Source of the DNA: a virus
Length of the DNA: 64,000 bases
Virus record (IMG/VR): IMGVR_UViG_3300027754_000069
Location: 1-64,000 of that record
Direction: 5' to 3' (one strand)
This document shows, one piece after another, positions 1 through 64,000 of the stretch. A model generated the notes under the pieces. It worked only from the letters and a program-made list of their open reading frames with translations, was not told the origin of the DNA and made no database searches. The translations under genes were made by a program, and so were the position numbers. The first letter of the stretch is position 1; every line of letters begins with the position of its first letter.

Positions 1-82
1 CTAACCAACGAACTGAGCCAGCAAAGCTGGCAACTATTGTGGCAGTGGCAACAGCCAAGCCAGCCCATTCGTTGGTAGACAT
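1..82 (-). CDS. Small membrane protein of lysis cassette (partial, runs off window)
   Basis: Same N-terminus (MSTNEWAGLAVATATIVASFAG) as 40426..40629. Confidence 0.75.
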   Translation of the reverse strand, partial: MSTNEWAGLAVATATIVASFAGSVRWL

Positions 83-88
83 TATTCT
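1..88 (+). repeat. 88-bp exact direct repeat, copy 1
   Basis: ctaaccaacg...attattct identical to 40548..40635; first mismatch at 89/40636. Confidence 0.95.
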
Positions 89-270
89 ACTCCGCGACCA
101 AAGTCTGTAGATGACTGGTCAAGCCACTTAAGTACTGGACCAAGGAAGCCTGTTAGGGCTGCCATTCCTAGTGTCTTAAGGTCCGTCTCACCAACAAGGT
201 ATAAAGCGACAGCAGCTGATGCTGCTGCGCGGAACCAAGATAGTGCTGCTGCTTGAAACTTTGCGTTCAT
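82..270 (-). CDS. Putative holin
   Basis: 62 aa, two hydrophobic helices, upstream of endolysin in circular order; homologue 40629..40817. Confidence 0.7.
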   Translation of the reverse strand: MNAKFQAAALSWFRAAASAAVALYLVGETDLKTLGMAALTGFLGPVLKWLDQSSTDFGRGVE

Positions 271-283
271 TTATTTCTCCTTA

Positions 284-517
284 TTATTCTGTTGTTGTTT
301 CTTCTGGTGCAATAAATACATCTGCTGCAGAGTCATAGGTATAACCTGGACGAGCAAACACTCCACGGATACGACCAGTAAAGGATGTCTGAATCCAGTT
401 ACCACCTTCACCCCAGTACTTAGTTAGGTATTCAGTTGGGTCTGTTTCAAATTCATCTGGTACAGCAACTACAATATCTACTACATTATCTTCTTTTACT
501 TTTGCAAAATATGCCAT
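284..517 (-). CDS. Small tail-fibre-associated protein
   Basis: MAYFAKV...WIQTS...GYTYD motif; homologous to N-part of 40872..41219; follows fibre gene. Confidence 0.6.
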   Translation of the reverse strand: MAYFAKVKEDNVVDIVVAVPDEFETDPTEYLTKYWGEGGNWIQTSFTGRIRGVFARPGYTYDSAADVFIAPEETTTE

Positions 518-519
518 TT

Positions 520-2235
520 TTATACTCCGTTGTTTATTCCTGAGTTACCGTTTGCTGCACTTCCGATACCACCTTGCCCAGGTAAAATAGCCCCTAGGTT
601 TACAGTTGTTGCAGGTGCTGTATATACTGTAATAGGAATATATCTGGCTATTACACTGTTAGCGCCACTTTTAACATATCCTATTTCTACAAGAACAATA
701 GTATTAGCAACAACAATAACAATCTGTTTTGTCTGACTAACGTTCATACTAGAATTTATTCCACGATTACCAATTGCAAATAATGAATTATTATCATTAG
801 TTGCTATTGGTTGGTTAAGAGCAGTATTTAAGTGGTCAACAATTGAATAAGACATTGACTGCCCCGCTACCATTACACCATTTGGAAGAAATGTAGCCAT
901 TAGACCATAAGAGTTTGGTGCTCCACCGTAGTTTCCATTGTTAGTGCTACCACCGTAAACATTTCTAGATTGAAAACTTCCTACGCCAGTATAGACACCA
1001 GTCCTACTAAATCTAGCAAGGTAACCTTGCCCACTGTTATCACCAACCGCATAACTTAAACCAGTGCTTGCATTTGGAACCGCACAATACCATCCCATAT
1101 TAGTATCAGTTGTACCACCAGCGATTCTTGGGTCAACAACTCCATTAACATTTGAATATTCAACAGTATTTGTTGCAATATCCCATTGTGCCCAGTTGTG
1201 ACGCCAGCCATAATTTACATAAGTGCCGCTGTAGGTAATATCTTTGCACCCATTGTAGATAACTTTATTATTTACTCTATCATGAAAATAAGTCATAACG
1301 TTATTTAAAAGAGTACCTATGTTTGAACTGAGTGAAGCAAATGCAGTATTAGTATGACCAGGTGACATTGTTAATGTAGAACCTGTTGGAAAAGTTCCAG
1401 CACTGATGTTTCCCTTAATCCAACCCCAGCGGTAACCAGCAGCATCTGTCATTAACCCAGACTGGTCTAAATTATGCAATTCATTGCTTTTAATAAAGAA
1501 TGAGGAATGGAACTCGGTTGCATTATCACCACGAAAACCAATACCATTACCATTGTAAAATGTATTTCCTGATGATGCAATTACATTGCTCCAATATGTA
1601 GCATCCCAGGTGCCACTTGAATTAGCCCGCCATAGATAAAAATCTGATGTTCTAATTCTTCCGCTAGTTAAAGTGCCGTTTGAAGTAATTAAAAATGGAA
1701 GATTTCTATCGTAATCCCAACCAACTTGAAGGTCCTTGTGACTAAGGTCCGTAGTTGCAGTTGAAGATGCCCCACCAACTGTTGTTCTATTTCCAGTAAT
1801 GGTTCCTAAAGATTTATATGCTGAGTATGTTGGAGTAAAAGTAACATCAAACCCAACATCATTAAGTCCCGCTGCGCCATTGCTATTTCTTAGAGAGATT
1901 TGAACGTAAGCATCTCTTTGCAAGATAAGAATATTTCCTTTAGGGCTATTATCGTTTCCCATAAGAAACGGTCCTGGTCTGCCATTGTCGGCGTATTGGG
2001 TTAATACCGTCCATTCGCCACCACCTAGTGTGTAGTTTGCAGCAAAACTGCTTGACCCACCAATTGCAAAACCCATTGGCTGCGCCGAAACCGTGTACGT
2101 ACCTTTTGGAATAACATGACGAGTGGATGTTGCATTTGCTACTGTACTTGCTACAGCATTTGCCAGCATGTTTTTAATTACAATTGGAGTATAGGAAACA
2201 TTTGTTACTGAAGTACCGACAGTTGTTGCACCCAT
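520..2235 (-). CDS. Putative receptor-binding/tail protein
   Basis: 571 aa, G/N/S/T/Y-rich beta-type composition, distal tail cassette; no orthologue in unit B. Confidence 0.55.
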   Translation of the reverse strand: MGATTVGTSVTNVSYTPIVIKNMLANAVASTVANATSTRHVIPKGTYTVSAQPMGFAIGGSSSFAANYTLGGGEWTVLTQYADNGRPGPFLMGNDNSPKGNILILQRDAYVQISLRNSNGAAGLNDVGFDVTFTPTYSAYKSLGTITGNRTTVGGASSTATTDLSHKDLQVGWDYDRNLPFLITSNGTLTSGRIRTSDFYLWRANSSGTWDATYWSNVIASSGNTFYNGNGIGFRGDNATEFHSSFFIKSNELHNLDQSGLMTDAAGYRWGWIKGNISAGTFPTGSTLTMSPGHTNTAFASLSSNIGTLLNNVMTYFHDRVNNKVIYNGCKDITYSGTYVNYGWRHNWAQWDIATNTVEYSNVNGVVDPRIAGGTTDTNMGWYCAVPNASTGLSYAVGDNSGQGYLARFSRTGVYTGVGSFQSRNVYGGSTNNGNYGGAPNSYGLMATFLPNGVMVAGQSMSYSIVDHLNTALNQPIATNDNNSLFAIGNRGINSSMNVSQTKQIVIVVANTIVLVEIGYVKSGANSVIARYIPITVYTAPATTVNLGAILPGQGGIGSAANGNSGINNGV

Positions 2236-2537
2236 TATACTATCTCCACTCCGCTAATATGGAAGTTAACAGTTGTTGCGTTTGCCAAACCAGTAATTGT
2301 TTGAGTTGCGGCTAGCACTTGTTTTAAGTCAATAAATGTTGTTGCATTTGCAGGTACTGCACCACCCGATACTAAAGCAACTCCATTAAGGTTAATAGTA
2401 AATGTTGCATCATTGATTGATGTATTTGCTACTGCAATGTTTGTGACAACCGCAGTACTTCCTGCAGGTGTTGTATAGAGGGTTGTACTTGATGTTGCTG
2501 CTGCTGTACGAGACAGCACCTTTGATATAACAGCCAT
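2235..2537 (-). CDS. Small tail structural protein
   Basis: 100 aa beta-rich; good RBS (AACCGAAAGG); between fibre genes. Confidence 0.6.
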   Translation of the reverse strand: MAVISKVLSRTAAATSSTTLYTTPAGSTAVVTNIAVANTSINDATFTINLNGVALVSGGAVPANATTFIDLKQVLAATQTITGLANATTVNFHISGVEIV

Positions 2538-2557
2538 TAGTTACTGTTTCCTTTCGG

Positions 2558-4327
2558 TTAGAGGTATGCACCCATGATGATTTGTTGTTGTATTTCTTCT
2601 ATCTGTACTGTTGTCGGTCCACCAGCCACAGTTGACCATAGGATTCCAGAGCCAGTTGATTGCAAATACTGACCATTGGTACCAGATGATGCTGCTGCAG
2701 TTAGTGTTCCAGTTAATGTTAAGTTAGAAATTGTAGGACTTGTTCCAAATACTAGCGAACCTGAACCAGTCTCGTCTGAAATAACTCCTGCTAATTCTGC
2801 AGAAGTAGTAGCAGCAAGTTGCGATAATTTATCTGTAGTAACTACTAGAGTCTTAGATGTAGGAATAGTTGTTGAGTTAATGGTTAAGCCAGCAATATTG
2901 GTATAAGTAGTACCAGAGGCAATTGTTGTGCTACCAAGAGTCGGTGCCGAATAAATGCTAGTTGTAGCAATCTGTACCCAAGTAGAACCTGACCACACAT
3001 ACATATTGTTAAGTGTAGAATTCCAATAGATAGCACCAACAAGAAGTGTGTTGCCATCATTGTCTACTGTAGGAGTAGTTGCCTTGCTACCAAGATAGCG
3101 GTCATCAAAATCATCGTATGTTGTTGCAGCAGAAGAAGCACTCGTTAAAGCACTTGATGCCGATGTAGCAGCAGACGATGCGCTAGTAGCTGCAGCAGAG
3201 GCAGATGATGCCGATGCGGAAGCCGATGCGGAGGCGCTTGTTGCGCTTGTTGCAGCTGCAGTTGCGCTTGTACCAGCAGATGTTGCACTGGTAGCAGCAG
3301 CGGTAGCGCTTGCAGAAGCGTTTGTAGCACTGGTTGCAGCTGCTGCTGCACTTGCAGCAGCGCTGGTTGCACTGGTTGCTGCCTGTGATGCAGAAGTTGT
3401 AGCAGTTGCTGCTGAGTTGGATGCAGTAGTTGCTGACCCTGCAGCTGCCGATGCTGATGCTGCTGCGTTGGATGCAGATGTTCCTGCACTGGTTGCACTG
3501 GTTGCAGCGCTAGATGCTGAAGTGGCTGCTGCTGTTTGAGAAGTCAATGCCGATGTTGCAGAAGTTGCAGCAGCCGTCTGTGATGTTAACGCTGAGCTAG
3601 CACTGGTTGCTGCTGCGGTTTGGCTAGCAAGTGCAGAAGATGCACTGGTTGCTGCTGCAGATGCAGAAGCAGATGCACTTGTGGCACTTGTTGCTGCAGC
3701 GGTAGCCGATGTTGCAGCTGATGCTGCAGAAGTAGATGCTGCAGTAGCAGAACCAAGAATGTTGTCTACATAGTTTTTAGGAGTAGCAGACGAGTCAACC
3801 ATGCCAGCAGATGACAATCCAGTAATAGTTGCGCTGGTAATTGTACCGCCAGTAATTGTTGCTGATGATGTGAAGGCACCAGTTAATGTTCCACCAGCAT
3901 GTGCTGCTGTTGTAATAGTACCACCAGTAATTGTCGGTGAAGTAAGCGTCTTGCTAGTAAGTGTTTGTGCTCCGCCAGTACCAACAACATCTCCAGTTAC
4001 GTTGTGTGCTGTGCTTGCCACCTCGTGTGCGCGAGACTCAGTAAAGTCTCTAGCGGACACACCATGTTCAATGATTGCACCAATGTTGTGAGCCTTTGCT
4101 GTGGTTCCGTCTTGACCACGAAGAATGGTGTAAGCAGTACCAACTAAAGTAGTGACACTAACAATTTCTTCGTTAGCCGTATCCTTTTCAAGAATAAGCG
4201 TAAATGGATATTGTGATGGTAGACCAGAAGCGGTAGCAATCTGAAGGCTAGTTGAAGCCGAATCGATAGCAACAGCTACCGTTGTCTTTGCAGCGGTTGA
4301 GCTATAATAACGTGATGGTGATGGCAT
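2558..4327 (-). CDS. Tail fibre protein with Ala/Ser/Thr-rich stalk
   Basis: N-terminal anchor shared with 43742..45361; long (SAATSA)-like low-complexity segment. Confidence 0.75.
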   Translation of the reverse strand: MPSPSRYYSSTAAKTTVAVAIDSASTSLQIATASGLPSQYPFTLILEKDTANEEIVSVTTLVGTAYTILRGQDGTTAKAHNIGAIIEHGVSARDFTESRAHEVASTAHNVTGDVVGTGGAQTLTSKTLTSPTITGGTITTAAHAGGTLTGAFTSSATITGGTITSATITGLSSAGMVDSSATPKNYVDNILGSATAASTSAASAATSATAAATSATSASASASAAATSASSALASQTAAATSASSALTSQTAAATSATSALTSQTAAATSASSAATSATSAGTSASNAAASASAAAGSATTASNSAATATTSASQAATSATSAAASAAAAATSATNASASATAAATSATSAGTSATAAATSATSASASASASASSASAAATSASSAATSASSALTSASSAATTYDDFDDRYLGSKATTPTVDNDGNTLLVGAIYWNSTLNNMYVWSGSTWVQIATTSIYSAPTLGSTTIASGTTYTNIAGLTINSTTIPTSKTLVVTTDKLSQLAATTSAELAGVISDETGSGSLVFGTSPTISNLTLTGTLTAAASSGTNGQYLQSTGSGILWSTVAGGPTTVQIEEIQQQIIMGAYL

Positions 4328-4330
4328 TTG

Positions 4331-5230
4331 TTACCTCGTATACTGGATGATGTTTAGGAAGTTTGCCTGTTGCTTAGCAATTTCTTCTGCCAAGCGAACA
4401 GAATAAAGTTGGAAGATGTACTTTGCAGCATTAGTTGATGCACCTGGTGCTACTGGTTGGTCTAGTGCATCAGCAGATACTGATACCGCTGTAACCTTTC
4501 CTGGGTCTACTGTTGAAAGTAGTCGATACATTGCACCAAGTCGAACGACATCTTCGCAAGAAGATGGAAGACCGCTTGCTGTTAAATCCTGACCATTGGT
4601 AATTGCTGTTGGATACTTTGTATATTGAACTCGAACATCACGACCAGGCATTGGTGATTCTTTAAGAATCAAAGCCTGTCTTGTGGTTCCAGTATCTGGG
4701 TCATAGTAATTTGTATCCAAACGCCAGTTCTTAATAATCTGCCATACTCCTGTTGAATCTGGTACGTCCCATGAGATTCCAGTAATATCTACCAATGAAT
4801 CTGGCATAACGTATGAGTAGTCAGCTCCGTTAAATTCAAATGTTTCATTTGTTACAACAGGAAAAGTCATTCCCTTGATTGTTTCTAGCAACGCTCTCTT
4901 TACCTGAGAACGTGGGAACAATGGGTTGTTGCGAACAATCGAGCCAGACACGTGACTTGTTGCTGTAGTCCCACGCCATCCACGACCAGAAGGGTTTCCG
5001 CTGGTTCCGATAATCTCAATAGTTCCGCTGTCTGCAATAGATTTCTTTACGTAGAGAAGTTCTTCTTCGATTTCTACAACGCCTTTGCTGAGGGATTTAA
5101 CATCGTCTACTGCAATAGTAAGGTCATTAGCAGCAATGCTACTAGTGATGACAGTAATTGAATCTTGGTTCTTGATATAAGAACCAACCTCAGCAATAGT
5201 CTGTTCAACTAATTCCGATAATATAGTCAT
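4331..5230 (-). CDS. Head-tail adaptor / tail tubular A-like protein
   Basis: 299 aa, position after capsid cluster and before fibre; homologue 45365..46264 of the same length. Confidence 0.55.
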   Translation of the reverse strand: MTILSELVEQTIAEVGSYIKNQDSITVITSSIAANDLTIAVDDVKSLSKGVVEIEEELLYVKKSIADSGTIEIIGTSGNPSGRGWRGTTATSHVSGSIVRNNPLFPRSQVKRALLETIKGMTFPVVTNETFEFNGADYSYVMPDSLVDITGISWDVPDSTGVWQIIKNWRLDTNYYDPDTGTTRQALILKESPMPGRDVRVQYTKYPTAITNGQDLTASGLPSSCEDVVRLGAMYRLLSTVDPGKVTAVSVSADALDQPVAPGASTNAAKYIFQLYSVRLAEEIAKQQANFLNIIQYTR

Positions 5231-5472
5231 TATGCTTGTGCTGCCCTTCCTATTTTTTCAGATACTCGTACAGCTTTTTGAATATCTTTCATCTTGGTTG
5301 ATGCTGGTTGAATACCGAGTTTGCGAGCATCGCGGTAGGCGCTTAACTCTCTATCGGTTGTCTTAATAAAAGTTGCTGCGCCTTCGTGACTGACGCCAAT
5401 ATTTGCATCACGTAAACAATCACCATAACTTCCATGGTCTTGCGTACGACATCCGCTTCTACACTTCGACAA
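5230..5472 (-). CDS. Conserved hypothetical protein (CRSGC..QDH..C)
   Basis: Homologue 46264..46506; TTG start chosen by alignment. Confidence 0.7.
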   Translation of the reverse strand: MSKCRSGCRTQDHGSYGDCLRDANIGVSHEGAATFIKTTDRELSAYRDARKLGIQPASTKMKDIQKAVRVSEKIGRAAQA

Positions 5473-5713
5473 CGTAATCCCCATACCCTGCAGCGGTTAG
5501 CTCCGCTGCCTCTGCGTCAGTAATTGGGTTGTCGTATCCACCACGTAATACCTTTTGGTAACTAGCAAGACTAGAGTCTTGCGGAGATACGATTGTCTTC
5601 CAGATTCCATTGTCTTTGACAACGGTCTTTCCCCATGGATATGAAACAAACCATAGGTCATTCTGCATGCCTAGCTTTATTCTCATGGTTGGTCCACGGA
5701 AAATTTTTGCCAT
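5459..5713 (-). CDS. Conserved hypothetical virion-region protein
   Basis: Homologue 46499..46753; stop/start overlap. Confidence 0.7.
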   Translation of the reverse strand: MAKIFRGPTMRIKLGMQNDLWFVSYPWGKTVVKDNGIWKTIVSPQDSSLASYQKVLRGGYDNPITDAEAAELTAAGYGDYVVEV

Positions 5714-5988
5714 TACCATTTCACCTTATCTGCCCAATAGGCTGCTGACATAACACCCTTATTAATGTTCTTTGCATGACGTGCTTTAAAAGATTGACGA
5801 CGTTGGCGATATGATTTTGTTTCACCAGATTTTTCTGGTGAACCAGATACACCTTGTTGACCAAAACGGATAGTCTTTATTTGAGAACCAGATTTGGCTA
5901 CAACAACATGAGACTTCTTGGGATGTGAAGGTGTAGCCTTTGGCTTATTAAAGCCAGATACACCTGCTCGTTTTAGTCTTGGGTCCAT
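5713..5988 (-). CDS. Conserved basic phage protein (KTIRFG...SFKARH...AYWA)
   Basis: Near-identical homologue 46753..47028. Confidence 0.8.
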   Translation of the reverse strand: MDPRLKRAGVSGFNKPKATPSHPKKSHVVVAKSGSQIKTIRFGQQGVSGSPEKSGETKSYRQRRQSFKARHAKNINKGVMSAAYWADKVKW

Positions 5989-6159
5989 TTACTTCTTCTT
6001 TGCTTTAGGCTTCTTGACCCCTGGCTTTGCTTTACCAGTCATTGACAAAGCAATAGCAATTGCCTGCTTTGGGTTCTTTACTACTTTGCCACCTTTACCA
6101 GAGTGAAGTCCTCCAGCTTTGAATTCATGCATTACTGCTTTAACTGATTTCTTTGGCAT
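5989..6159 (-). CDS. Small basic protein, DUF6496-like
   Basis: VMHEFKxGxLHSG...KQAIAIALS motif; homologue 47029..47199. Confidence 0.65.
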   Translation of the reverse strand: MPKKSVKAVMHEFKAGGLHSGKGGKVVKNPKQAIAIALSMTGKAKPGVKKPKAKKK

Positions 6160-6215
6160 TAGCACTTGCACTTCGACTTAGCTTTGCCACACTTCTTGCA
6201 CATCTTTGTTGGCAT
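6159..6215 (-). CDS. Putative 18-aa Cys/Lys-rich microprotein MPTKMCKKCGKAKSKCKC
   Basis: Fills the gap between two genes exactly, TAATG coupling to next start; below the ORF-track cutoff. Confidence 0.45.
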   Translation of the reverse strand: MPTKMCKKCGKAKSKCKC

Positions 6216-6217
6216 GA

Positions 6218-6370
6218 TTACATACCCTTCTTCTTCTTAAGGGCTGGCTTCTTGACGGCTGGCTTCATTTTAACCTTGCCATATTCCATCATCATTTCTT
6301 TTTTGCCTTCAGACTTCTCATGCTTTTTCATTGCAGTCTTTGACTTGTACTTCTCATTCTTCATTGACAT
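6218..6370 (-). CDS. Small Lys/Met-rich protein
   Basis: MSMKNEKYKS...KKPALKKKKGM; homologue 47199..47393. Confidence 0.65.
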   Translation of the reverse strand: MSMKNEKYKSKTAMKKHEKSEGKKEMMMEYGKVKMKPAVKKPALKKKKGM

Positions 6371-6563
6371 CGTCTAACCCTTCATCTAGAAAATCTAATC
6401 CTTCTAATTCCAAATCGGGAAGCTGGCGCATTAACAATTCCCATGCTTCACCTTCACTAAACCCTGCTTCTTTGTACTCCGTGTAAAGCTCGTGAGCTTG
6501 AACAGCATGTAATTTAAGCGGTGTTAAGAAAGTTATATCTGGTTTTTGTTTCTTCTTTGTCAT
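6354..6563 (-). CDS. Hypothetical protein (HExY..AGFSxxEAWxLL)
   Basis: Homologue 47377..47589. Confidence 0.7.
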   Translation of the reverse strand: MTKKKQKPDITFLTPLKLHAVQAHELYTEYKEAGFSEGEAWELLMRQLPDLELEGLDFLDEGLDDVNEE

Positions 6564-6577
6564 ATCTCCCCTAAGTA

Positions 6578-6603
6578 GAAGGGGGAGGTTGCCCTCCCCC
6601 TTC
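6578..6603 (-). terminator. Hairpin after major capsid gene (probable leaky terminator)
   Basis: 11-bp stem GAAGGGGGAGG/CCTCCCCCTTC, GCAA tetraloop on minus strand, weak U-tract. Confidence 0.7.
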
Positions 6604-6611
6604 CGTCAAAG

Positions 6612-7589
6612 TTACGCTGTTGCGATGCTTGACTTGGTCTGGATAACGTAACGTGCTTCCTTGCGGTAGACGTTCCATCCGAGTAGACCCTTCCAACCCG
6701 CTGGGCGGAAGCGCATCAACTTATCTGTAACTGGACCGATGACAGTCTTTGGCTCATATGAAACAGCCTCAACAAGAGCCTGCTTACCAAGGAGTACAGT
6801 TGCGTAAACCTTAGATGTACCTGAACCTGAGATTGACTCAGCACGTGGTGTTTCGATGTAACGAACCTGGTCGAAGATACCAATTTCACCATTCCATAGG
6901 TTGGCAACGCCAGCCTCTGTGTAGGTGTGTGGTAGCTGCCATGAAACGTTTCCAGATGATGCTGCTTCTGAACGAAGGTCATATGAAACATCTGGGTGAA
7001 TAAGTGCTGTGTAGAATCCACCATCACGTGGCTGAACAGATGCGCCACGAAGCTTTGCTACTGCCTTGCGAGCAAGTGCTGCAGACATGTATGGAGCTGT
7101 GGTTGAAGCAGATACGTTCTCACCGTTGATGGTTGATTCATCAGCAGATGATGTACCTGTGTAGCGCATTGTTGCAAGTGATGTTAGCTTTGCCCATACA
7201 AGTGAATCCAATGAATCGCGCATGTTGAATGCCAACATATCTGCGACCGCTGGGTCAATTGCTGATAGGGACTCTAGAGCTAGACGCTCTGTTGTGATGA
7301 CAGCATTACCGAATTCATCTACAACTACGTTCACCTTGTCGGTGTTTGATAGTGTAACTGCATCTGGGTCCTGTGTCTGAGTTAGTGCTGTAGTAGCACG
7401 TGATAGGTCCTTGTAGACCTGGAATACGACAGTGTTGCCTGGGTTTGTTACATCGACAGGGCGCTTGTCCGCAAACTTGCGGAACATTGGCTCTGAACGA
7501 AGGTTAAACTCAATCAGCTTGTCATACGAGGTTTGAATCAAGTTCGACAACGTTGACGTTGTCGTACTCGTTGCTGGTGTAGTAGGCAT
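6612..7589 (-). CDS. Major capsid protein (N4-gp56-like family)
   Basis: 325 aa after acidic scaffold, followed by hairpin; motifs EFGNAV, IHPDVSYDL, GEIG, DKLMRFRPAGWK. Confidence 0.9.
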   Translation of the reverse strand: MPTTPATSTTTSTLSNLIQTSYDKLIEFNLRSEPMFRKFADKRPVDVTNPGNTVVFQVYKDLSRATTALTQTQDPDAVTLSNTDKVNVVVDEFGNAVITTERLALESLSAIDPAVADMLAFNMRDSLDSLVWAKLTSLATMRYTGTSSADESTINGENVSASTTAPYMSAALARKAVAKLRGASVQPRDGGFYTALIHPDVSYDLRSEAASSGNVSWQLPHTYTEAGVANLWNGEIGIFDQVRYIETPRAESISGSGTSKVYATVLLGKQALVEAVSYEPKTVIGPVTDKLMRFRPAGWKGLLGWNVYRKEARYVIQTKSSIATA

Positions 7590-7624
7590 GATTTCCTTCT
7601 ATTAGGGTTTTATGTGGACTTTTG

Positions 7625-8074: not shown

Positions 8075-8217
8075 TGCTTTTTCTCCCTATTAGTTAGTTG
8101 AAACCCTCATCGGGTTTGCACCACACGTACTCCTCACAAGGGGTAGTGATTCATAGACGTGATGACTTCCAGACTTATACACATCACCAGGGCTGGACAA
8201 TCTGGGACGGAACTTAA
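8075..8217 (-). ncRNA. Structured cis-regulatory RNA leader (H-type pseudoknot plus hairpins) upstream of scaffold gene
   Basis: Highly conserved with 49107..49247; three fully compensatory base-pair changes between the copies. Confidence 0.7.
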
Positions 8218-10176: not shown

Positions 10177-10185
10177 CTTTTACCC

Positions 10186-47627: not shown

Positions 47628-47636
47628 CCCATCAAA

Positions 47637-50864: not shown

Positions 50865-50868
50865 TTAC

Positions 50869-55900: not shown

Positions 55901-57859
55901 TCCACGAGCAAATGGATCAACCATTGAGTTCTTTGGGATGTATGCAAAGCGAAGTAGGTTTAAGTTGTTAAATACCATATTGGCTGTGTCAAGAACTTGA
56001 CCTACAGCCATTCCAACCTTAGAGGCAAATGCTCCAAGCTCTTGACCTTTAGTAATTGGTGCTCTTGCACCAAGTGAACGCTTAGTATTTACAATAACTT
56101 CAATTTCTAACTTACGGAAATCAAGCATTGGTACAGTCTGAGCTTCATTTGATACAGCAAAGAAGTTGGTTACGTTAAGGTTTCCATCTTCATCTGGTAT
56201 AAATCCATGCTTAGTTGCATATTGGGTTAATGTTTGGCGACGCTCACTAACTCCAGCATGCCATTTAGTAATTTGGTCTACTGCATCTTTGTTAGTTTTG
56301 ATATCATCGATACCACGAACACCGTAATTATTAGCAAGTCTAATCATGACTTGTTGTTCTACTTGCGCAAGAGCCATTGCTCGTTGAGTATCATCCTGTG
56401 CTGCAAGGAACTTCTCAACCATATCGCGCTTAAACTTTGCACCTTCTGAACCGCGCAGCATTTGCAAACGGTTAAGGTCTGATAGTAAATCATTGGCTGC
56501 TTCAAACCTACGTGGGTTAGAAACATTGATGTGACCTTGTGGTCGACCTGAACCCACCCATGCAATAGCACGTACGGCACGATCGTAAACATCTGTTTGA
56601 TATACAGTTGAACGCCAGCCTTCGCCACCGTCTCGACCAAATAGTTTGATGTCACCATACTTAGCTTGCAAAGCAAGCTTTTGCTTACCGAGGTTTAGCT
56701 TTTCTAATACGCCATACTTACCTGGTTGATAACTTTCAAGTACGCCACTAGTTGCTTTAGACATAAAGTCATCAAGTGCATCAGAAAATTTAGGATCAGA
56801 TGCTCGCTTGGCGTCAATGATAGCCTGATAGCGAGTTGTCAACTTAGGACTGATTGCATCTAATCCAATTTTAGAAAAATCTGAAATTGGTTCAAATCGG
56901 TTAATGCCATAATTGTCAATATGGTCAGCAAGTACTGGCTTGCTTTGCATTAAACGCATGAATGCTGCAGTATCACCACGTTCGGCAAGCAAGTAATCTC
57001 CAACATCTCGATGATTATCAAGACGAGAGACGATTGTTGCTGTGCGATATGGGTTTGCAGTTTCTGAAATCAAAGGATTCGCAGCAAGACGAGTTAGATT
57101 TGTCTCTTTAACTGCGTCATCAATAAGAACACCAAGACCAGATGTAGGTGCTTCGCCAGTTTTGGCAGCAGCCCAAGCAACAGTATCCTCAACTTTAGCG
57201 CGGAATGTATTCATATCTGCAGTTGTAAGAATCTTTTTTGATCCAACTGCAGTCTTTACACCTGCACGAGTTATTGCTCCAGCACCTTTAGTACCAAGCA
57301 ATGCGAGAGTTAAATCTGTTCCACCTGATGCAACAATTCCAAGCCATTCATCTCTGAATGCATTGTCTCGTTGTTTGTCATCAAAGACGTTAAAGTTGCT
57401 GTCCATGAATGTAGGAGTAATTGCATCTGGTAATACAGATCCAACAACTCCTCCTACAGATGTGGCAAGAGCCTGACCCATTGAGATCTTCTTGGCTTGC
57501 TGGGATGCGTATCTAAAACTAGATACGCCCTTGCCTTGACCAAGAGCTTGTGGAACAAGAAGAGCAGTAGAGACACCCTGTGTAATAGGTTGAACTACGT
57601 ATTTGCCTACTGTCTCCATAACCTTCATGGCTGGATTTACAATAAAACCAAATGGACTATTCTTTGCCTTTTCAATTCCAGAAGCAATCTTAGGAACAAT
57701 AGCTTTTTCAATTCCACCGACTTTAGTATTATCAAACTGTTGTTTCTTAAAAGAATCTACAGGTGAATACGTTGGTCCAGGGGCGGTTGCTGGTGTTTCA
57801 GCGTAGTACTTATCCCACCAGTTGGGAGTTGGTGTTGGCTGTGGTTGCATCTGCGACAT
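52904..57859 (-). CDS. Large internal virion / ejection protein (unit B)
   Basis: 1651 aa homologue of 12358..17301. Confidence 0.6.
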   Translation of the reverse strand: MSQMQPQPTPTPNWWDKYYAETPATAPGPTYSPVDSFKKQQFDNTKVGGIEKAIVPKIASGIEKAKNSPFGFIVNPAMKVMETVGKYVVQPITQGVSTALLVPQALGQGKGVSSFRYASQQAKKISMGQALATSVGGVVGSVLPDAITPTFMDSNFNVFDDKQRDNAFRDEWLGIVASGGTDLTLALLGTKGAGAITRAGVKTAVGSKKILTTADMNTFRAKVEDTVAWAAAKTGEAPTSGLGVLIDDAVKETNLTRLAANPLISETANPYRTATIVSRLDNHRDVGDYLLAERGDTAAFMRLMQSKPVLADHIDNYGINRFEPISDFSKIGLDAISPKLTTRYQAIIDAKRASDPKFSDALDDFMSKATSGVLESYQPGKYGVLEKLNLGKQKLALQAKYGDIKLFGRDGGEGWRSTVYQTDVYDRAVRAIAWVGSGRPQGHINVSNPRRFEAANDLLSDLNRLQMLRGSEGAKFKRDMVEKFLAAQDDTQRAMALAQVEQQVMIRLANNYGVRGIDDIKTNKDAVDQITKWHAGVSERRQTLTQYATKHGFIPDEDGNLNVTNFFAVSNEAQTVPMLDFRKLEIEVIVNTKRSLGARAPITKGQELGAFASKVGMAVGQVLDTANMVFNNLNLLRFAYIPKNSMVDPFARGSMALESMELVKNGMPGVQNIVHNTSLRAEQAKRWIPGTNSAASRRQEKAVLKEMDILAGDLKIAVEPWEVAQKNFDAAEMAWQAARTAQAKAEALAKKATKATQAQADAAKHAADYELWKAQDAFYKATDELDRTGQAVNGLSVLIEKKRALISDEAKAQGALRNRKLLGQEAEVIIVNGKEYAIAGLADPNIRGAKAYMSEIDSTQNFYSTSMQAEYSRRLRAEGSRFVTIKRNEGKPYWNALAHIANRQIRNELEMPLGMMMRGESDGQILKWLYTGDAGKEYRRRMSSRAGHQMTQDEFASWISTTSDKLRKMYPSEELRKLILERDVSIKETEILLRNRPDLLESIEGPNINLNDLNWAEKRFANLAGVTDAAWRVLALSENRMVRNPLFLNYTRDEMRTLINAAQRAGIDPSDAVVNNQMRQVAYRNALARVEQTLYSSRRLTNGMYAARFAMSFPLAFFNSQVVAMKLMAKNPMNAYWYNGIANAFDNFEAYEDQDGNTYAKMSDVPPGTQVNVKYPLPLGDKLPQWAKDALKPYTDSRGGGLKWNPKQMEFMIADPSVSWFGTVGISQLVKDGFTAPFGLWTIHGEDIAKNIRSTFGDDFYENSILYGGYPQEGGNLVSTAVNTIAPGYLRSALDKIGILRSDRFVDEVFTNYRVLYSEWDRNGRTGEPPSMAVAAKAAGNMSFIRSVVQFFAPISTTFDPVTRAATQYYSDLLTQFGGDYDLAQKKMEEEWGIDSIALIGSNQKNIAGVAANYSDIKMIRNNPALLEKIGRWDTKYASMLSAGYGELTDEYSTEIAAIYKRLNFPGGYNSPLTQKKSAEELRVDIESRRGWAEYQKATEWRDSVMAQYGVTSSYQVRYQSLGIKAEYDRMVKAIQTDFPGWADNRSASQRDFWGVTVPAIQEIANDPKWRQYADGKGDKWTEIAYWLTQANAFKQQYAQAMSSDARKADLKAQFSQFHYNFMQVASDDFSTFAARWLENMPELSTELVAS

Positions 57860-58016
57860 TAGTCATTCCCCCTTCTGGAGCTGTAGTTAATTCATTAAGT
57901 AAATCAATGCGATCACTATCAGACTCAAAAGGAAAACGAGCTAAATCCCATGCTACTGGAGCCAACTCAAACCCAAGATACTCGAGGTTCTCCTCGAACT
58001 TCTTGAATACTTTCAT
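57810..58016 (-). CDS. Hypothetical protein
   Basis: Homologue of 17276..17455. Confidence 0.7.
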   Translation of the reverse strand: MKVFKKFEENLEYLGFELAPVAWDLARFPFESDSDRIDLLNELTTAPEGGMTNVADATTANTNSQLVG

Positions 58017-58429
58017 TCAGTTTGACTCCGTAGATATTTAACAAATGCTTTCATTGTTCCAGTTGAATTAGGTGAATCTGCAAACTGCATCATTAGAGGT
58101 AGATACTTTTGTAACGCAGTTAAGTCTCCTACTTGTACATCACTGGGTGCTTTAAGTCCTAGTACTTCACTGCCTGGACCTGGACCAGCATCAACACCTG
58201 CAGTAACAGGTTCGTTTGGTCGGTTAGTTTGCGCAGATAACGGAATAACACTGCCTAATGGATTAGCAGATTTTGCCATTGGTGCGCCCGCCTGTTGTGC
58301 AAGAAAATCCTTTTGCTCGCCATAGGCTGCATTAGGTAATCTTTTAGCACCCTGCGCTGGGATATCTGGTCGCTTGGAAAACTTTCCAGGACCAGATACC
58401 GCGCCAGGATTGGGTTGCAACATAGACAT
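58013..58429 (-). CDS. Conserved Pro/Gly-rich protein
   Basis: Homologue of 17452..17847. Confidence 0.75.
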   Translation of the reverse strand: MSMLQPNPGAVSGPGKFSKRPDIPAQGAKRLPNAAYGEQKDFLAQQAGAPMAKSANPLGSVIPLSAQTNRPNEPVTAGVDAGPGPGSEVLGLKAPSDVQVGDLTALQKYLPLMMQFADSPNSTGTMKAFVKYLRSQTE

Positions 58430-58435
58430 GAATTA

Positions 58436-59914
58436 CTACTTTCTTGAAGCTTCGTATGCTTTCGCTGCTTTAGATCCTGGTACATATGGAACTGGACCTG
58501 TATACATTGGCTTAGGAGCTGGCTTGTTATTAGGGATCTTCACTGTTGTGTTTCGATAAATCTTGCGAGGATCTTTAATTTTCTTATTAGCTGCTAGTAA
58601 CTCTGAAAGAGTTACGCCAGCCTTCTTAGCAATACCTGAAAGTGTGTCACCGTGTTCAACTTTGTAATCAGTAGTTGTTCCACCAGGACCGATCTTAAGA
58701 CCTTTACCGCCACCCTTTGGATACGCACCTGCTGGACGCTTAGGCAATGCTGTTAGACCTGCAGCTGCTGCTGCAGTTGTCTTTCCTTTTAATCCACCTG
58801 GAACTGCACGACCATAAGATGCGTTAGTCATCTTATCTTCACGACCGCGACCAAATGGCTTTCCTGAATTGATCATGTCCCAAGTTGTGCGATCCTTGGT
58901 ATCTTTGCTTAATGCTTTATGAATAGGACCTGCAGCAAGAGATGCTGCTGTAATTGCAAGACCGACTTTACCGCCAGTTGCTTTCCATGCGCCTTTACCA
59001 ATTGCACGTGCAACTGTGCCTGCAGTAACTTTCTTAGCTGCTGACTTAGCACCAGTTGTAGCAACTGTGCCTGCGCCCTTCTTTGCAACTACTGCAGGAA
59101 GGTTAGGTGTTCCGCCTTTAGCAATACGAACCGCTTCGCCCTTTGACTTACCTGACGCAACCGCTGCCTTGTACCTATCAACTTCTGCTGCTGTCTTAAG
59201 TTCACCTGCTGCTGCAACACCTGTTTTAATTTTTGGTGTTGTTACTGTTGGCTTAGTTGTTGTTGGCTTAGCTGTTGTTGTGCCTCTTGTTGCTGCCCAG
59301 TTCTTACGTTCTGCTGGTGTCATCTTTGCCCATGCTGCTTTATTAGCAGCAGACTTTTCTGCACGAGTTACGCCAGGCTTCTTAACGCCAGGCTTTGGCG
59401 AGAATCCCTTGTTAACCTTTGGAGGTTTATTTGGCGGTGTTTGACCACCACCTGCAGCAGCAACCTTTGGTTTAGGTTTTGATATTGTTTCAGCGGTTCC
59501 AGAAACTGGACGAGTTGTCAACTTCTTCTTTGATTTTGGTTTTGGCTTCTCTGGTTTAGCTGCAGCAGGTGCTGTTGCTTTAGCAGGAGCAGATTTAGCT
59601 GCTGCTGCATCTTCTTTTGCATACATGCGATCAACTGCAGCTCTAGCCTCACGGCGATCACGAGCAATTCGCTCTTGTGCTGTTTCAGTTGGCTTACTAA
59701 ATACTTTATTTCCGCGATCATCGGTAATGTAACCTGCCTTGGCTTCTTTCTTTACTTCTGAAAGAACTGCCTTATCTTCTGCAGATACTTTTGCCATAGG
59801 GTCACGGCGTACCGCCTTGGTCTTTCTACTTGTGAAAGCTCCCTTGGCATCGGCTACAGCAGCTTTACGCGCCTGCTTAAACTTCTTCGGAGCTTTTGGT
59901 TTCTTTGCTGCCAT
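58436..59914 (-). CDS. Lys/Ala/Pro-rich protein with C-terminal LysM (unit B)
   Basis: Shares KSAANKAAWAKMTP and LysM with 17856..19355. Confidence 0.75.
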   Translation of the reverse strand: MAAKKPKAPKKFKQARKAAVADAKGAFTSRKTKAVRRDPMAKVSAEDKAVLSEVKKEAKAGYITDDRGNKVFSKPTETAQERIARDRREARAAVDRMYAKEDAAAAKSAPAKATAPAAAKPEKPKPKSKKKLTTRPVSGTAETISKPKPKVAAAGGGQTPPNKPPKVNKGFSPKPGVKKPGVTRAEKSAANKAAWAKMTPAERKNWAATRGTTTAKPTTTKPTVTTPKIKTGVAAAGELKTAAEVDRYKAAVASGKSKGEAVRIAKGGTPNLPAVVAKKGAGTVATTGAKSAAKKVTAGTVARAIGKGAWKATGGKVGLAITAASLAAGPIHKALSKDTKDRTTWDMINSGKPFGRGREDKMTNASYGRAVPGGLKGKTTAAAAAGLTALPKRPAGAYPKGGGKGLKIGPGGTTTDYKVEHGDTLSGIAKKAGVTLSELLAANKKIKDPRKIYRNTTVKIPNNKPAPKPMYTGPVPYVPGSKAAKAYEASRK

Positions 59915-59916
59915 GG

Positions 59917-60459
59917 TTATCCTCTTCCGATGTAGCCGAATTGACCATTTTTTGTATTTTTAGGCGTCGGCTTTTTAGTTATTTTTGGTGTTGGTTTAGC
60001 CGTTACTTTAGGTGTTGGCGTAGGTGTTGGTTTAATTGTTATTTTAGGTTTTGGTTTTGCTGTTACCTTAGGCGTTGGCGTTACCTTGGGTTTTACCACT
60101 CTTGGCTTAGGCTTAACAGTTACTGTTGAAGTATCCACTGGTGTAATCACTGTTGAAGTATCCACTGGTGTAGTTACCGTTGAGGTATCTTCTGGTGGAA
60201 TAATTACTTTTGGTGGGACTGTTGCTTTAGGCGTAAGGGTTGGCTTAACTACCTTTGGCTTAGGTTTTGGTGTAGCAGTTGGCTTGGGTGTTGGCTTTAC
60301 TACCTTAGGTTTAGGCGTTGGCGTAGCTGATGGTTTAGGTTTTGGTGGAGGATTATCTCTAACCATGCCTTTTTCAAATCGATAAATACCCTTGGGGAGC
60401 GAACTCATCGGTTTCCAAGTTTTTGATTTGCTATCGTAATACCATCTACTGTCAGCCAT
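59917..60459 (-). CDS. Pro/Thr/Lys-repeat protein
   Basis: PKPKVVKPT and DTSTVxTPV repeats; near-perfect 27-bp tandem unit near 60122..60175. Confidence 0.6.
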   Translation of the reverse strand: MADSRWYYDSKSKTWKPMSSLPKGIYRFEKGMVRDNPPPKPKPSATPTPKPKVVKPTPKPTATPKPKPKVVKPTLTPKATVPPKVIIPPEDTSTVTTPVDTSTVITPVDTSTVTVKPKPRVVKPKVTPTPKVTAKPKPKITIKPTPTPTPKVTAKPTPKITKKPTPKNTKNGQFGYIGRG

Positions 60460-60489
60460 AAATGTCCTTTACTTAAAAGTTATTAAGCT

Positions 60490-60639
60490 TTACTTAAGCT
60501 TGTTGTTGTTGCCCTTTGTGCCTTTTGACAAAGTACCTTGCTTCACCATTCCACCACCAACGACTTTTCCGCCGTTTTTCTTGCCCATGATTGCTGTTGA
60601 AGTTGGAGCCTTTGCTGATTTTCCTTGCTTTCCGAACAT
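60490..60639 (-). CDS. 49-aa basic protein (unit B)
   Basis: Homologue of 19706..19855. Confidence 0.7.
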   Translation of the reverse strand: MFGKQGKSAKAPTSTAIMGKKNGGKVVGGGMVKQGTLSKGTKGNNNKLK

Positions 60640-60653
60640 TTGTTTCTCCTTAG

Positions 60654-62429
60654 TTATGCTGGGATCTGACGAGTTACTCTCGCTGCTAGATTTGGATTTC
60701 CTCCACCTGTTAGACCTGCAAGCAGTTCTTGCATTGCTGGTCTACCTTGAGGAAGTTGTGGTGCTTGTCCTCCGCCCATTCCAGGTTCAGGAACTGCTGG
60801 TTGTTCTTGCATTCCTGGTTGTCCTGCTGGGGCTTCTGGTGCTGGTTCTGGCTTAAAAGCATTTGCTACTGCATCTTCAAGAGGGATACCCTTCTTGCGA
60901 TCTGTAATAACGCTTGCCATTTTTTCTACAATCTTCATTGGGTCTTGACCTTGCATTACCATTTGTGGAATTGCTGCAGCCATTTGTGATACGGACGCTT
61001 TAAGGGAATCACGCATCTCTTCAATGTCGATTGCTCGCTCTTCTTCACCAGCATTAAGCGAGATAGGAAGGTTGCGACGCAACATTCCACGAGAGATTAA
61101 CTTATCTCCACGAGCTTGTAGACCCCATACCAATGCACGGTTAGGGTCTAAACCTGCCATAAGACCGTACTCAACGGTCACGCCATAATTTCCATTAATG
61201 TCGGAAGATGGCTTGTACTTTAACTTGTAAGGAACTCCGTTAGCAGTTGCGGATACTTCACGAGTAATCTCTGGGAAATATGCTTCATCAGTTGCAAATG
61301 CAAATGAGATTGCCTGTCCAATTGCCTCACCAAGAATTGATTGGTAAATCTTAACTTGTGAATCGTATCCTGCCATCAAAGCCTTTACGCCTTGACCAGT
61401 AACTACTGATCCTTCTGCTTGTCCTGCACGTGCTTGAGGGAAACGTGTTCCCAATTTCATTTCATCCGCTAGGACATTGTTCTCCGCAAACGCGAACTGA
61501 GGTACATCCAGGTTGATACGACGAATTTTCTCAGGAGAGTTAGAACGAATGACTGAATCAGGACCAATGGATAAAGAAGTAACATCATTAGGAAGAGCAA
61601 GTGGAGCTTCAACAGACTTCTGAACAGCTTCCATAGTAAGGAGAGCAAGTCGCGCTTTCGCTGCGTAAACAGGTAGTACATCGTCGAACTGACCCCTGGT
61701 CTCGCCATCCAAAGAAGGACGTTGAGCAATTGCAATTGGGACGATACCCGCCTTGTTTGGTGTCGTTGCAAGTACTAACCCTCCACGATCTGGTAAAAAT
61801 AAAACAGTCTTTTGTCTGTCTGTCCAACGTACAACCTGTAACAAACTGTTACCGTCGCCACGTGTATAAGTATTTGTTTGAAGAATTGCATCGGCATGCT
61901 CGGGGAAGTGAGCAGCCAAGTCTCCAGCTTTACGGTGATATAGACGAGCGTAGGTGTTTACAACACCGAAGCGATCCATATCGTAATAAGCACCCATTGA
62001 ATTTTCCACATGGATGTGTGGTCGCTTGTCCTTAAAGTTTGGTTCAACTCGTAAAGGAACAAAGCCATAGGTTGCTAACTGATCTGCGCCACGCAGTAGT
62101 TCCGTTCCAAGCCGAGATGATGCAACATAATAGTTTGCAATCTTGGTACGCTTGTCAGCCTTGGAACGCTGGTTATCATCGAGAGATGAATCACCAGCAG
62201 CAGTAATGGTAGGTAGAACACCGACTTGTTCAGCAACATCTCTTGCGACAACGTCAATGAGGTTGGCAATAATAGGACGTGACCAAATGCCTTCTGGGAA
62301 TAAACCACGGAAGACCTGATCGGCATTGCCAGCTCTAACAAGAGCAACCTCGCGCATGCGCTTATCGCGCTCGGAGTTACGAGCTTTTAATTGCTCGAAT
62401 GCATTTACAAGTTCTTTCATTGATGTCAC
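60654..62429 (-). CDS. Portal protein (unit B)
   Basis: Homologue of 19869..21626. Confidence 0.85.
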   Translation of the reverse strand: MTSMKELVNAFEQLKARNSERDKRMREVALVRAGNADQVFRGLFPEGIWSRPIIANLIDVVARDVAEQVGVLPTITAAGDSSLDDNQRSKADKRTKIANYYVASSRLGTELLRGADQLATYGFVPLRVEPNFKDKRPHIHVENSMGAYYDMDRFGVVNTYARLYHRKAGDLAAHFPEHADAILQTNTYTRGDGNSLLQVVRWTDRQKTVLFLPDRGGLVLATTPNKAGIVPIAIAQRPSLDGETRGQFDDVLPVYAAKARLALLTMEAVQKSVEAPLALPNDVTSLSIGPDSVIRSNSPEKIRRINLDVPQFAFAENNVLADEMKLGTRFPQARAGQAEGSVVTGQGVKALMAGYDSQVKIYQSILGEAIGQAISFAFATDEAYFPEITREVSATANGVPYKLKYKPSSDINGNYGVTVEYGLMAGLDPNRALVWGLQARGDKLISRGMLRRNLPISLNAGEEERAIDIEEMRDSLKASVSQMAAAIPQMVMQGQDPMKIVEKMASVITDRKKGIPLEDAVANAFKPEPAPEAPAGQPGMQEQPAVPEPGMGGGQAPQLPQGRPAMQELLAGLTGGGNPNLAARVTRQIPA

Positions 62430-64000
62430 AATCTCACAGCTCGCTGTTGTGCAGCGAGGTCATCTAAGTTGATGATGTATCTTGATTCAATCTCACCACG
62501 AGGTGTATATTGATTGTTGATAAAGTTTGGTACGTTAGTCGAAGTTAACAAAGTTTCTCTGGCTACGATCTCACAGAACCATAATGCCATCACGGCATCC
62601 ATCTTGAGTTTCTTGCCTTGTACTCCTGGTTGCCAGGTTACTAATTGTTCTATTAACTTTTTGACGTGTTCATTCTTCGAGCTGTCTGGTAATTCAATTA
62701 AGTTATCATCAGCATGCTTGAAGTTGTTCATGACTCCATCTCGCTTAGTGAGGGAGCCGAACAGTGGAGCCAGAGAGGCAACGCCAAACTCTGGATCCTG
62801 TTTATTATTTCCTGTGTAGTGAGGTCTATAACTAATACCTCGGGTCGACAGGAAGTTACGAATCTCTTCGTCTTGTGTAAGGAAAAGCTGAAAAGCATTT
62901 GATTCCACAATGACCGTATGCGGTTTATACGCATCGGTCCATTCCCTGATAAGAGAACGAATTGCTGCAGGTGTAGGAGCTGTCATGATGTGAACATCTA
63001 AGACGTAGCGTTTATGTGACCTGCGGTCAACCGCATAGGCGATAGCAGCGGTATCACCAGACATTGCTGGGTCGATACCTATGACCCTGTAAAAGTTCTC
63101 AGGGTTGTTGGGATGTCCTGCTGCGCCTGCAACCAATGCACCCGATTTTCTCATTCCGTTGACTGCGCCTCTGACGCATGTCGGGTCGAAGATTGCATTC
63201 TCCGCAATATCGAGGTTCTGGTATACCAGCGACCACTTAGATGGTCCTGCCTCATTACGGACCGCCGTTAGACGCGGTCCTGTCCATCGATCAAACAAAC
63301 CATTCTCGTCGGGTACGTCAGTATCCGTAAGAGGTTGTTCGGTCTTTTCCCAAAGACATTTCCAGTCTTCAGGCTTGTCTGCATATTCTAAGACTGCAGG
63401 CATGGACAAATATGACCAAGGCAATGTGCCATCGGTGTAATGCTGTGGGTTGCGGAGTTCCTTATATAAGTCAACTGCTGATACTCGTGTGCCTACAACA
63501 AGAAGCTGCCCACCTCCTGGTGGTAGGCGTGAAGCAACTTCTTGTCGAATCCACTCTTGTTGCTTAGCCCACTCTGAAGCATTACTCAGAGTGACTACGT
63601 CGTCAAGAACGATTAAGTCTGCACGGTTTCCGTAAACCTGCCCGCCCATACCGATAGCTTCGACTGAAGGGTCTTTAGCATCGTTATCGCGGATGTCGCC
63701 ACCAAGATAGATCTTGGTTGCTGACCACTGGTCTGCAGTAGCTTTGTATCCATCTGCTGGACCAAAAGCTGCCTGAAGGTCAGCGTACCTCGGATGCGTC
63801 AAGCGTTGCTTGATCGCATACAAAAACTTCTTTGCCTGCTCCTGGGTCTTGGAGATAACCATGACCGAGATGTTAGGATTCTTAACCAGACGGTAGGTGA
63901 CGTAGTTAATTGTGATCGTCATTGTCTTGGCGTGGTTAGGGGGTACGTTTACAAGAAGGCGGGATAAGCCCGCCGACCCCTTTTCGTAGACCATGCTTTC
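62426..64000 (-). CDS. terL: Terminase large subunit (unit B, 5' end outside window)
   Basis: Homologue of 21631..23520 with the same ATPase/nuclease motifs. Confidence 0.92.
   Translation of the reverse strand, partial: ESMVYEKGSAGLSRLLVNVPPNHAKTMTITINYVTYRLVKNPNISVMVISKTQEQAKKFLYAIKQRLTHPRYADLQAAFGPADGYKATADQWSATKIYLGGDIRDNDAKDPSVEAIGMGGQVYGNRADLIVLDDVVTLSNASEWAKQQEWIRQEVASRLPPGGGQLLVVGTRVSAVDLYKELRNPQHYTDGTLPWSYLSMPAVLEYADKPEDWKCLWEKTEQPLTDTDVPDENGLFDRWTGPRLTAVRNEAGPSKWSLVYQNLDIAENAIFDPTCVRGAVNGMRKSGALVAGAAGHPNNPENFYRVIGIDPAMSGDTAAIAYAVDRRSHKRYVLDVHIMTAPTPAAIRSLIREWTDAYKPHTVIVESNAFQLFLTQDEEIRNFLSTRGISYRPHYTGNNKQDPEFGVASLAPLFGSLTKRDGVMNNFKHADDNLIELPDSSKNEHVKKLIEQLVTWQPGVQGKKLKMDAVMALWFCEIVARETLLTSTNVPNFINNQYTPRGEIESRYIINLDDLAAQQRAVRL

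Follow-up and report, generated by a model that had tools for sequence, protein, structure and literature searches.

Loss of GATC from one clade of freshwater actinophages and a candidate restriction system in their plausible host order

GATC is the target of Sau3AI, MboI and DpnII, CCGG that of HpaII and MspI, and GGCC that of HaeIII. Avoidance of restriction sites has been known for decades; Rusinov et al. (2018, PMC6286503) report that about a tenth of viral genomes have eliminated a word completely or nearly so, and non-temperate phages show site avoidance most strongly (PMC6286503). The first cultured phages of 'Candidatus (Ca.) Nanopelagicales' are LanE43-AprE7 and LanE43-AprF5 (OX376640, OX376641; PMC10202952). 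Here we analyse 64,000 nucleotides (the window) of the IMG/VR virus record IMGVR_UViG_3300027754_000069, in which GATC is absent from one phage genome, unit A, and common in a relative, unit B. The purge in A is an instance of site avoidance in a phage group for which the literature we searched describes no such avoidance, and that literature yielded no report of this purge in freshwater actinophages. We consider it likely that a GATC-specific Type II enzyme in the host population selected against phages that it could cut, and that this selection removed GATC from A.

GATC in two co-assembled phage genomes

The record as a whole comprises 82,688 bp in one virus contig, made up of two colinear genomes, unit A (1-40547) and unit B (40548-82688). 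The window covers A and part of B:

1..40547: unit A, one complete phage genome, circularly permuted; 0 GATC, 0 CCGG, 0 GGCC
40548..64000: unit B, first 23.4 kb of a genome of about 42.1 kb; 77 GATC here and 126 in all, 0 CCGG, 0 GGCC
40437..40635: 199-bp stretch identical in A and B, at which the assembler joined the genomes

A direct count found no GATC in 1..40659, the first at 40660 and 77 in 40660..64000. These figures agree with the initial annotation, which had read the same first position by eye, had put the later sites at about 70 and had expected about 150 in A; the expectation for A is 146 under a maximal-order Markov model and 154 from base composition. In the whole record, all 126 GATC lie in B, against about 192 expected (observed/expected ratio, O/E, 0.66), and the B part of the window holds GATC at 0.77 of expectation. 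Thirteen of the 16 palindromes of 4 bp occur in the A part at 0.72-1.12 of expectation, the exceptions being GATC, CCGG and GGCC, each with a count of zero. CCGG and GGCC are wholly absent from both units (Markov expectation 39-62 each), and GCSGC is nearly absent, with 3 against 29 expected in A and 1 against 38 in B. No long GATC-free tracts were found in B, where the longest gap of 1,422 bp is below the simulated median of 1,719; B thus lacks this sign of mosaicism.

The codons of A depend on their neighbours wherever a GATC could arise. Aspartate before a codon that starts with C is written GAC 120 times and GAT never, whereas elsewhere GAT accounts for 66%. Similarly, ATC is used for none of the 115 isoleucines that follow a codon ending in G (35% elsewhere), and serine after an xGA codon is AGY in 20 cases and TCN in none (TCN 73% elsewhere). 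Genome-wide, unit B follows none of these rules. Of the 91 GATC sites of B that align to A within orthologous genes, the dipeptide is retained in A at 57, and A reads GACC at 30 of the 91. GATC loss in A proceeded mostly by synonymous codon choice that spared the protein. The capsid gene illustrates this:

6612..7589, minus strand: capsid gene of A, with all eight GATC sites of the B copy recoded
47637..48614, minus strand: capsid gene of B, with eight GATC sites

The aligned examples that had been picked out in this gene are correct, as at 48278, where TGGATCGAT stands opposite TGGGTCAAT at 7253, and at 48392, 48002 and 48561; so is the recoding of GATC to AATC in the RNA leader.

The ends of the record explain how the two genomes came to be joined. 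Positions 1-88 are identical to 40548-40635, which is the 88-bp repeat described in the initial annotation, and the last 99 bp of the record are identical to 40437-40535. From both identities it follows that A and B have the identical 199-bp stretch in common and that the record begins and finishes inside it. A minus-strand reading frame of 67 codons (40426-40629) covers almost the same positions. In what is probably the source run, the stretch forms a unitig of its own at a depth of 27.4, with 9.9 in the A flank and 15.2 in the B flank, which is the signature of a node common to two genomes of unequal abundance. Moreover, in a second run from another study (X2) a 5,266-bp contig leads out of the end of A, across the 199 bp and back into A's beginning, and all 30 of its differences from the window, which lie from 40636 on, are A's letters. 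Together, the X2 contig and the unitig depths mean that A closes on itself and that the A-to-B join is a path of the assembler. Complete relatives (CheckV 99-100%) measure 41.1-42.6 kb, the size of one unit. The reported switch of GATC at the junction is therefore a real contrast, but the junction is an assembly join of separate genomes: the switch is the border between two co-occurring phages and not a feature of one molecule.

A and B share 64-79% DNA identity over most genes, and their tail-fibre cassettes are non-homologous. The 199-bp stretch is only 76-91% identical in five other complete relatives and exactly identical only between A and B, which suggests a recent exchange. Such an exchange would mean that A and B at least sometimes infect the same cell, and they probably do meet in one cell at times. 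The ends of contig G208 also lie within the stretch, which may be a common assembly breakpoint.

GATC across the terminase tree and along the genome

We examined eighty IMG/VR loci with related terminases, out of more than 598 matched stretches, and rooted the terminase tree on a distant group. The marker genes are:

21631..23520, minus strand: large terminase subunit of A, marker for the family tree
62426..64000, continuing to 64387 outside the window, minus strand: large terminase subunit of B, 87% identical to the A protein

The B protein is identical to that of IMG/VR contig L040 over 629 aligned columns. In the tree, the 25 rows with zero GATC form one clade (Shimodaira-Hasegawa-like approximate likelihood-ratio test, SH-aLRT, 95), sister to 27 rows that keep GATC (support 89). 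Both sister clades lie within a fully supported clade of 52 low-G+C rows, all of which lack CCGG. All of them also lack GGCC, save L029 of the GATC-free clade (9 against 25 expected), which regained it. The outgroups, at 51-63% G+C, retain all three words; the polarity is therefore that of loss, and one change explains the GATC state. Judged by this tree, the GATC purge is an inherited trait of one clade.

The counts in the relatives are as clear-cut as that in A. No GATC occurs in 31 GATC-free relatives (349 kb; about 1,296 expected) or in three complete genomes of the GATC-free clade (148-169 expected), and 59 low-G+C relatives (632 kb) contain 0 CCGG against 664 expected and 9 GGCC against 1,051. 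Further words are missing elsewhere in the family: a subclade on the B side has purged CGCG, L038 has purged GTAC (0 against 33 expected; 6 against 52 in its near relative L043), most high-G+C relatives have purged AGCT, and the distant group has purged AGCT and CATG, in some cases together with CCGG or TTAA. In L054 (57% G+C), CCGG (0 against 74) and AGCT (0 against 78) are absent and GATC is normal. The cultured phages E7 and F5 (L082 and L083; OX376640.1 and OX376641.1) contain zero GATC, CCGG, GGCC, AGCT and CATG, with 38-177 of each expected; the main text of PMC10202952 does not mention their site avoidance.

Within 10 kb of the terminase gene, no gene was found that separates GATC-free from GATC-keeping relatives. 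In a tree of the DUF932 gene (27923-28897 in the window), the GATC-free L004, L007, L032 and G205 nest among GATC-keepers (support 88-91), and their copies are without GATC despite this nesting. To judge from the tree, the gene may have been imported across clades and then purged.

Most unusual among these results, the GATC-keeping clade does avoid GATC, in its early-gene region only:

23521..29950, plus strand: early-gene region of A, small rightward genes including GP88-like and DUF932 genes
64388-72050 of the record, outside the window: early-gene region of B, counterpart of A's 23521..29950 and the only GATC-poor part of B

In the rightward early genes upstream of the terminase, GATC-keeping relatives hold 174 GATC against 364 expected (0.48), compared with 623 against 690 (0.90) in the terminase and structural region. 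The early region of B (about 7.7 kb; L081:388-8050) holds 9 against 36 (0.25). The depletion in the B clade is partial (O/E 0.2-0.7) and is seen in three subclades, whereas distant relatives, taken as controls, have a GATC O/E near 1 in both halves. Codon choice shows the same regional pattern. In B and the complete relatives G208 and G209 together, the early region has GAT for 19% of aspartates before C against 49% elsewhere (Fisher p 9e-6), and ATC for 22% of isoleucines after G against 65%; outside the early region, codon choice shows no such dependence on context (GAT before C 64% against 66%, p 0.39). The early region of B is also low in AATT (0.34), TTAA (0.22), AGCT (0.34) and CATG (0.45), and both clades show lower AGCT in their early region. 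Recent import of this region from the GATC-free clade is ruled out by its identities, 86-94% to GATC-keeping loci and at best 66-78% to GATC-free ones, and by a tree of the early gene GP88, which sets the two clades apart (100/100). Since the GP88 tree separates the clades, the depletion arose in place.

By analogy with T5, whose first-step-transfer region is without EcoRI sites, the early-only depletion may mean that exposure to restriction depends on position. An early-injected region reportedly plays a part in Type I restriction of Autographiviridae as well.

This pattern gives some weight to a reading that refines the one we favour rather than excluding it, namely that both clades met the same GATC restriction and answered it differently. 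The A clade would have dropped all its sites, and the B clade would have kept only its early region, the first to be expressed and possibly the first to enter, poor in sites, with an early function or staged DNA entry protecting the rest of B as in T5. The difference between early and structural O/E, the codon context effect confined to the early region, its recurrence in three subclades with distant controls near 1, and its origin in place all agree with such a course; so do the identical 199-bp stretch, which suggests shared hosts, and the wealth of acidic small proteins in the early region, which also carries the DUF932 gene. Pfam and PHROGs, however, revealed no known anti-restriction family in the early region, no early gene cleanly separates the two clades, and the contig ends that cluster upstream of the terminase do not fall on one base and so define no physical genome end. 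We therefore hold this reading to be possible but the less probable one.

The contig ends just mentioned belong to fifteen related contigs (L008-L020, L030, L040, L046, L069) that stop 133-298 nt upstream of the terminase gene. The matching spot in the window is about 23650-23820, where both ends of G207 abut. The ends are spread over about 130 alignment columns, and the cluster may mark a physical genome end or a spot that is hard to assemble.

Proposed host restriction and its alternatives

If selection against GATC cutting removed the word from A, the history would run as follows. An ancestor with GATC would have lost every site on the stem of one clade, mostly via synonymous codons, and purifying selection would have kept GATC out thereafter. 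The sister clade, with B, would have held GATC near its expected frequency in late and structural genes and avoided it in the early region of about 7.7 kb only. CCGG and GGCC would have been purged earlier, in both clades. The most likely agent would be a Sau3AI-family system (enzyme and C5 methylase) in a variable island of some Nanopelagicales genomes.

The case for this host order starts with a WhiB-like protein encoded in both units:

34473..34664, minus strand: WhiB-like gene of A, 52.9 bits against a cut-off of 23.6
76512-76694 of the record: WhiB-like gene of B, about 53 bits against a cut-off of 23.6

WhiB is a marker of phages of actinobacteria (PMC10202952). By terminase, the nearest isolates are the two 'Ca. 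Planktophila' phages (46% identity), followed by Streptomyces phages, and a relative of A (terminase 91%) lies in a 'Ca. Nanopelagicus' bin. Nanopelagicales is thus a plausible host order. A terminase 48% identical to that of A was also found on a 48.9-kb contig (L087) of a cultured Kineococcus sp. isolate with 67% G+C; this contig may belong to a phage of the same broad family, either as a prophage or purified along with the isolate.

On the host side, we searched samples of 151-201 genomes of the order of the Nanopelagicus bin. C5 DNA methylases are present in 40 of 151 genomes, mostly at one chromosomal spot at about 420-510 kb. In four of the 151 (G008, G010, G026 and G028), the methylase is adjoined by a Sau3AI-family enzyme, which in each genome has two MutH-like stretches. 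This enzyme scores 397 bits with NF040973, above the equivalog cut-off of 300, and matches PDB 4pxg with an E value of 5e-56, from which GATC cutting is predicted. Methylases 76-100% identical to the Sau3AI-linked ones occur in 14 of 151 genomes and lack the enzyme in 10 of these 14; the enzyme was therefore lost or replaced in most. An HpaII-type (CCGG) enzyme with its methylase occupies the same spot in 2 of 151 genomes, and a few further genomes of the order have Dam-family methylases together with small nucleases. The contents of this spot (contig 1 of the host-order genomes L098-L107 and L112) vary: besides the Sau3AI-type and HpaII-type enzymes, LlaMI-like, BpuJI-like and GmrSD (Type IV) genes, a HerA-like ATPase and a C5 methylase with a small HNH nuclease are found there. 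Compared with the structures of M.HhaI or M.HaeIII, the host methylases align in the catalytic core only and not in the target-recognition part.

These searches bear out the suggestion of the initial annotation that restriction systems of candidate Nanopelagicales hosts deserved comparison: Sau3AI-family GATC systems are present in the order, patchily. In core DNA of four candidate host genomes, CCGG occurs at 0.96-1.31, GGCC at 0.84-0.95 and GATC at 0.67-0.97 of expectation. Host core DNA is thus not depleted in CCGG or GGCC and only mildly in GATC, which makes the purge phage-specific and not a copy of host word usage. A clade-specific purge would call for a patchy GATC system such as the one predicted in the likely host order, and the link between the two is circumstantial.

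Several findings weigh against this explanation. The purge is a single evolutionary change, so that no statistical association with a host or gene trait is possible. The host, like the acting enzyme and the reason why the B clade would need avoidance in its early region only, is something that we infer, and another relative of A (terminase 90%) lies in a Polynucleobacter bin, which leaves the evidence from bins ambiguous. Recognised enzymes are rare, although avoidance of CCGG and GGCC is universal in the clade. Enzymes of the DpnII family were found in 0 of 201 genomes of the order, and enzymes for GGCC (HaeIII and NgoPII families) and the DpnI family in 0 of 151 each, these last three families being weak negatives as control genomes were likewise blank. 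Finally, the exact 199-bp identity suggests that A and B have overlapping hosts and not separate ones. The initial annotation had placed two close relatives under different host restriction regimes. Removal of GATC under differing pressure accords with a clade trait, synonymous recoding and patchy host systems. Different host regimes, on the other hand, must be qualified in view of the identical 199 bp, which suggests overlap, and of the B clade, which avoids GATC too, in its early region.

Protection of B by a methylase was the other proposal made from the window, with a Dam-like enzyme expected outside it. The DNA methylase families PF02086, PF01555, PF05869, PF00145 and PF05063 (D12, N6/N4, T1-Dam, C5 and MT-A70) gave no match in the whole 82.7-kb record, and PF02086 gave none in two complete GATC-keeping relatives, so that this proposal finds no support. 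More broadly, B or its clade might encode some other GATC-modifying enzyme. Candidates would be clade-enriched early genes of unassigned function in B, such as that for a 212-aa DUF1281_C protein, and, among three genes that both units carry, the glycosyltransferase-like and DUF1599 genes:

29967..32131, minus strand: glycosyltransferase-like, sigma-factor and DUF1599 genes, common to A and B

As these three are common to both units, they cannot account for the difference between A and B, and the DUF1281_C gene is also present in two GATC-free relatives. A protective modification would also leave the GATC avoidance in the early region of B unexplained. We regard a modifying enzyme of B as improbable. 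The DUF1599 protein (105 aa; 31814-32131 in the window) is the most conserved protein between A and B, at 96%; its domain is associated with nucleotide modification, and its gene lies close to the glycosyltransferase-like gene (29967-30800). Cytosine-modified DNA would make avoidance of CCGG, GGCC and GATC needless.

It is slightly less probable still that the missing words protect the phages from a nuclease of their own that destroys host DNA. Host DNA is rich in CCGG, GGCC and GATC, and both units carry PD-(D/E)XK nuclease genes, with a weak Mrr-like match (E 0.006) below the cut-off. The nuclease genes, however, are common to A and B, and no gene is present in all GATC-free relatives yet absent from all GATC-keepers. 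With five words missing from E7 and F5, and other sets (CGCG, GTAC, AGCT, CATG, TTAA) from relatives, many phage nucleases would be needed in genomes of 40 kb.

An artefact of composition, mutation bias, sequencing or assembly, as the A-to-B join itself is, can practically be dismissed for the absence of GATC: the Markov model and base composition give concordant expectations, the other 4-bp palindromes occur at about their expected frequency, the loss follows codon context, and the same purge recurs in dozens of assemblies made independently from other samples, as well as in two phages that have been cultured and sequenced.

Other genes and comparison with known systems

The remaining features concern tail, lysis and life cycle. 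The tail cassettes differ, as had been noted, the tail-fibre genes being without a BLASTP match between A and B:

2558..4327, minus strand: tail-fibre gene of A, PHROG 38058 with E 5e-178; no BLASTP match to B
43742..45361, minus strand: tail-fibre gene of B, from the other cassette, PHROG 38058 with E 2e-68; no BLASTP match to A

A 499-aa protein of A (17856-19355) has relatives in GATC-free loci only (11 against 0). At the equivalent place, a 492-aa protein of B (58436-59914) matches lysin/transglycosylase families at its C terminus and has no relatives in either set of loci. No tRNA genes were found in the phage and no tyrosine or serine integrase, the lack of the latter fitting the rule that avoidance is strongest in non-temperate phages (PMC6286503).

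Four aspects go beyond ordinary site avoidance: the clean contrast that a single step makes between the sister clades, the variation in purged words across the family, a named candidate enzyme in the host order and the early-region-only avoidance in the sister clade. Tentatively, and with more doubt than confidence, we propose that purged palindromes act as a heritable barcode of the restriction repertoire of uncultured hosts, and that early-only avoidance points to staged entry or an early anti-restriction function. If so, this barcode changes in discrete steps between close lineages of freshwater actinobacterial phages, and restriction in a siphovirus-like actinophage reaches only the DNA that is expressed first or enters first.

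To our knowledge, the most abundant freshwater bacteria lack CRISPR (clustered regularly interspaced short palindromic repeats) and are hard to link to phages. The set of purged words would offer a marker for their phages that can be read from sequence alone, and one that splits similar phages into lineages probably facing different host defences. There is also a concrete candidate agent, the Sau3AI-type system in a variable Nanopelagicales island, and these bacteria, like two of their phages, have now been cultured. Neither Sau3AI nor DpnII cuts GATC-free phages. A proximity-ligation kit with Sau3AI would therefore cut them by its second enzyme only, and virus-host linking with such kits may be biased. 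The early-only avoidance of the sister clade, in turn, is a possible natural example of position-dependent exposure to restriction.

The B clade resembles T5 and Autographiviridae in that avoidance is limited to the early region and sites are kept in the rest of the genome. It differs from T5 in that the depletion is partial and not complete, and both staged entry and an early protective function are putative here. In conjugative plasmids, a comparable depletion of the leading region was sought and not consistently found (PMC13478746).

The candidate enzymes of the host order are like Sau3AI of Staphylococcus (PDB 4pxg; NF040973) in their two-domain MutH-like build of 443-475 aa, in scoring above the equivalog cut-off and in having a C5 methylase of about 420 aa alongside. 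Unlike Staphylococcus Sau3AI, they occur in streamlined freshwater actinobacteria, their specificity is predicted, and the methylase is often found without the enzyme.

Among cultured phages, units A and B are closest to the Planktophila phages E7 and F5 (freshwater, about 39 kb, 45% G+C), which likewise have WhiB, a sigma factor and a glycosyltransferase and provide the nearest isolate terminase. E7 and F5 differ from A and B in the complete absence of AGCT and CATG as well and in a largely different gene content.

Taken together, A and its clade behave like the phages surveyed in PMC6286503, in which orthodox Type II palindromes of 4 bp are fully eliminated; here, too, there is no integrase, and recoding is synonymous. 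Unlike in that survey, a tree of uncultured relatives with a presumed host resolves the change here into one switch between sister clades, and the purged words differ by discrete steps from one part of the family to another.

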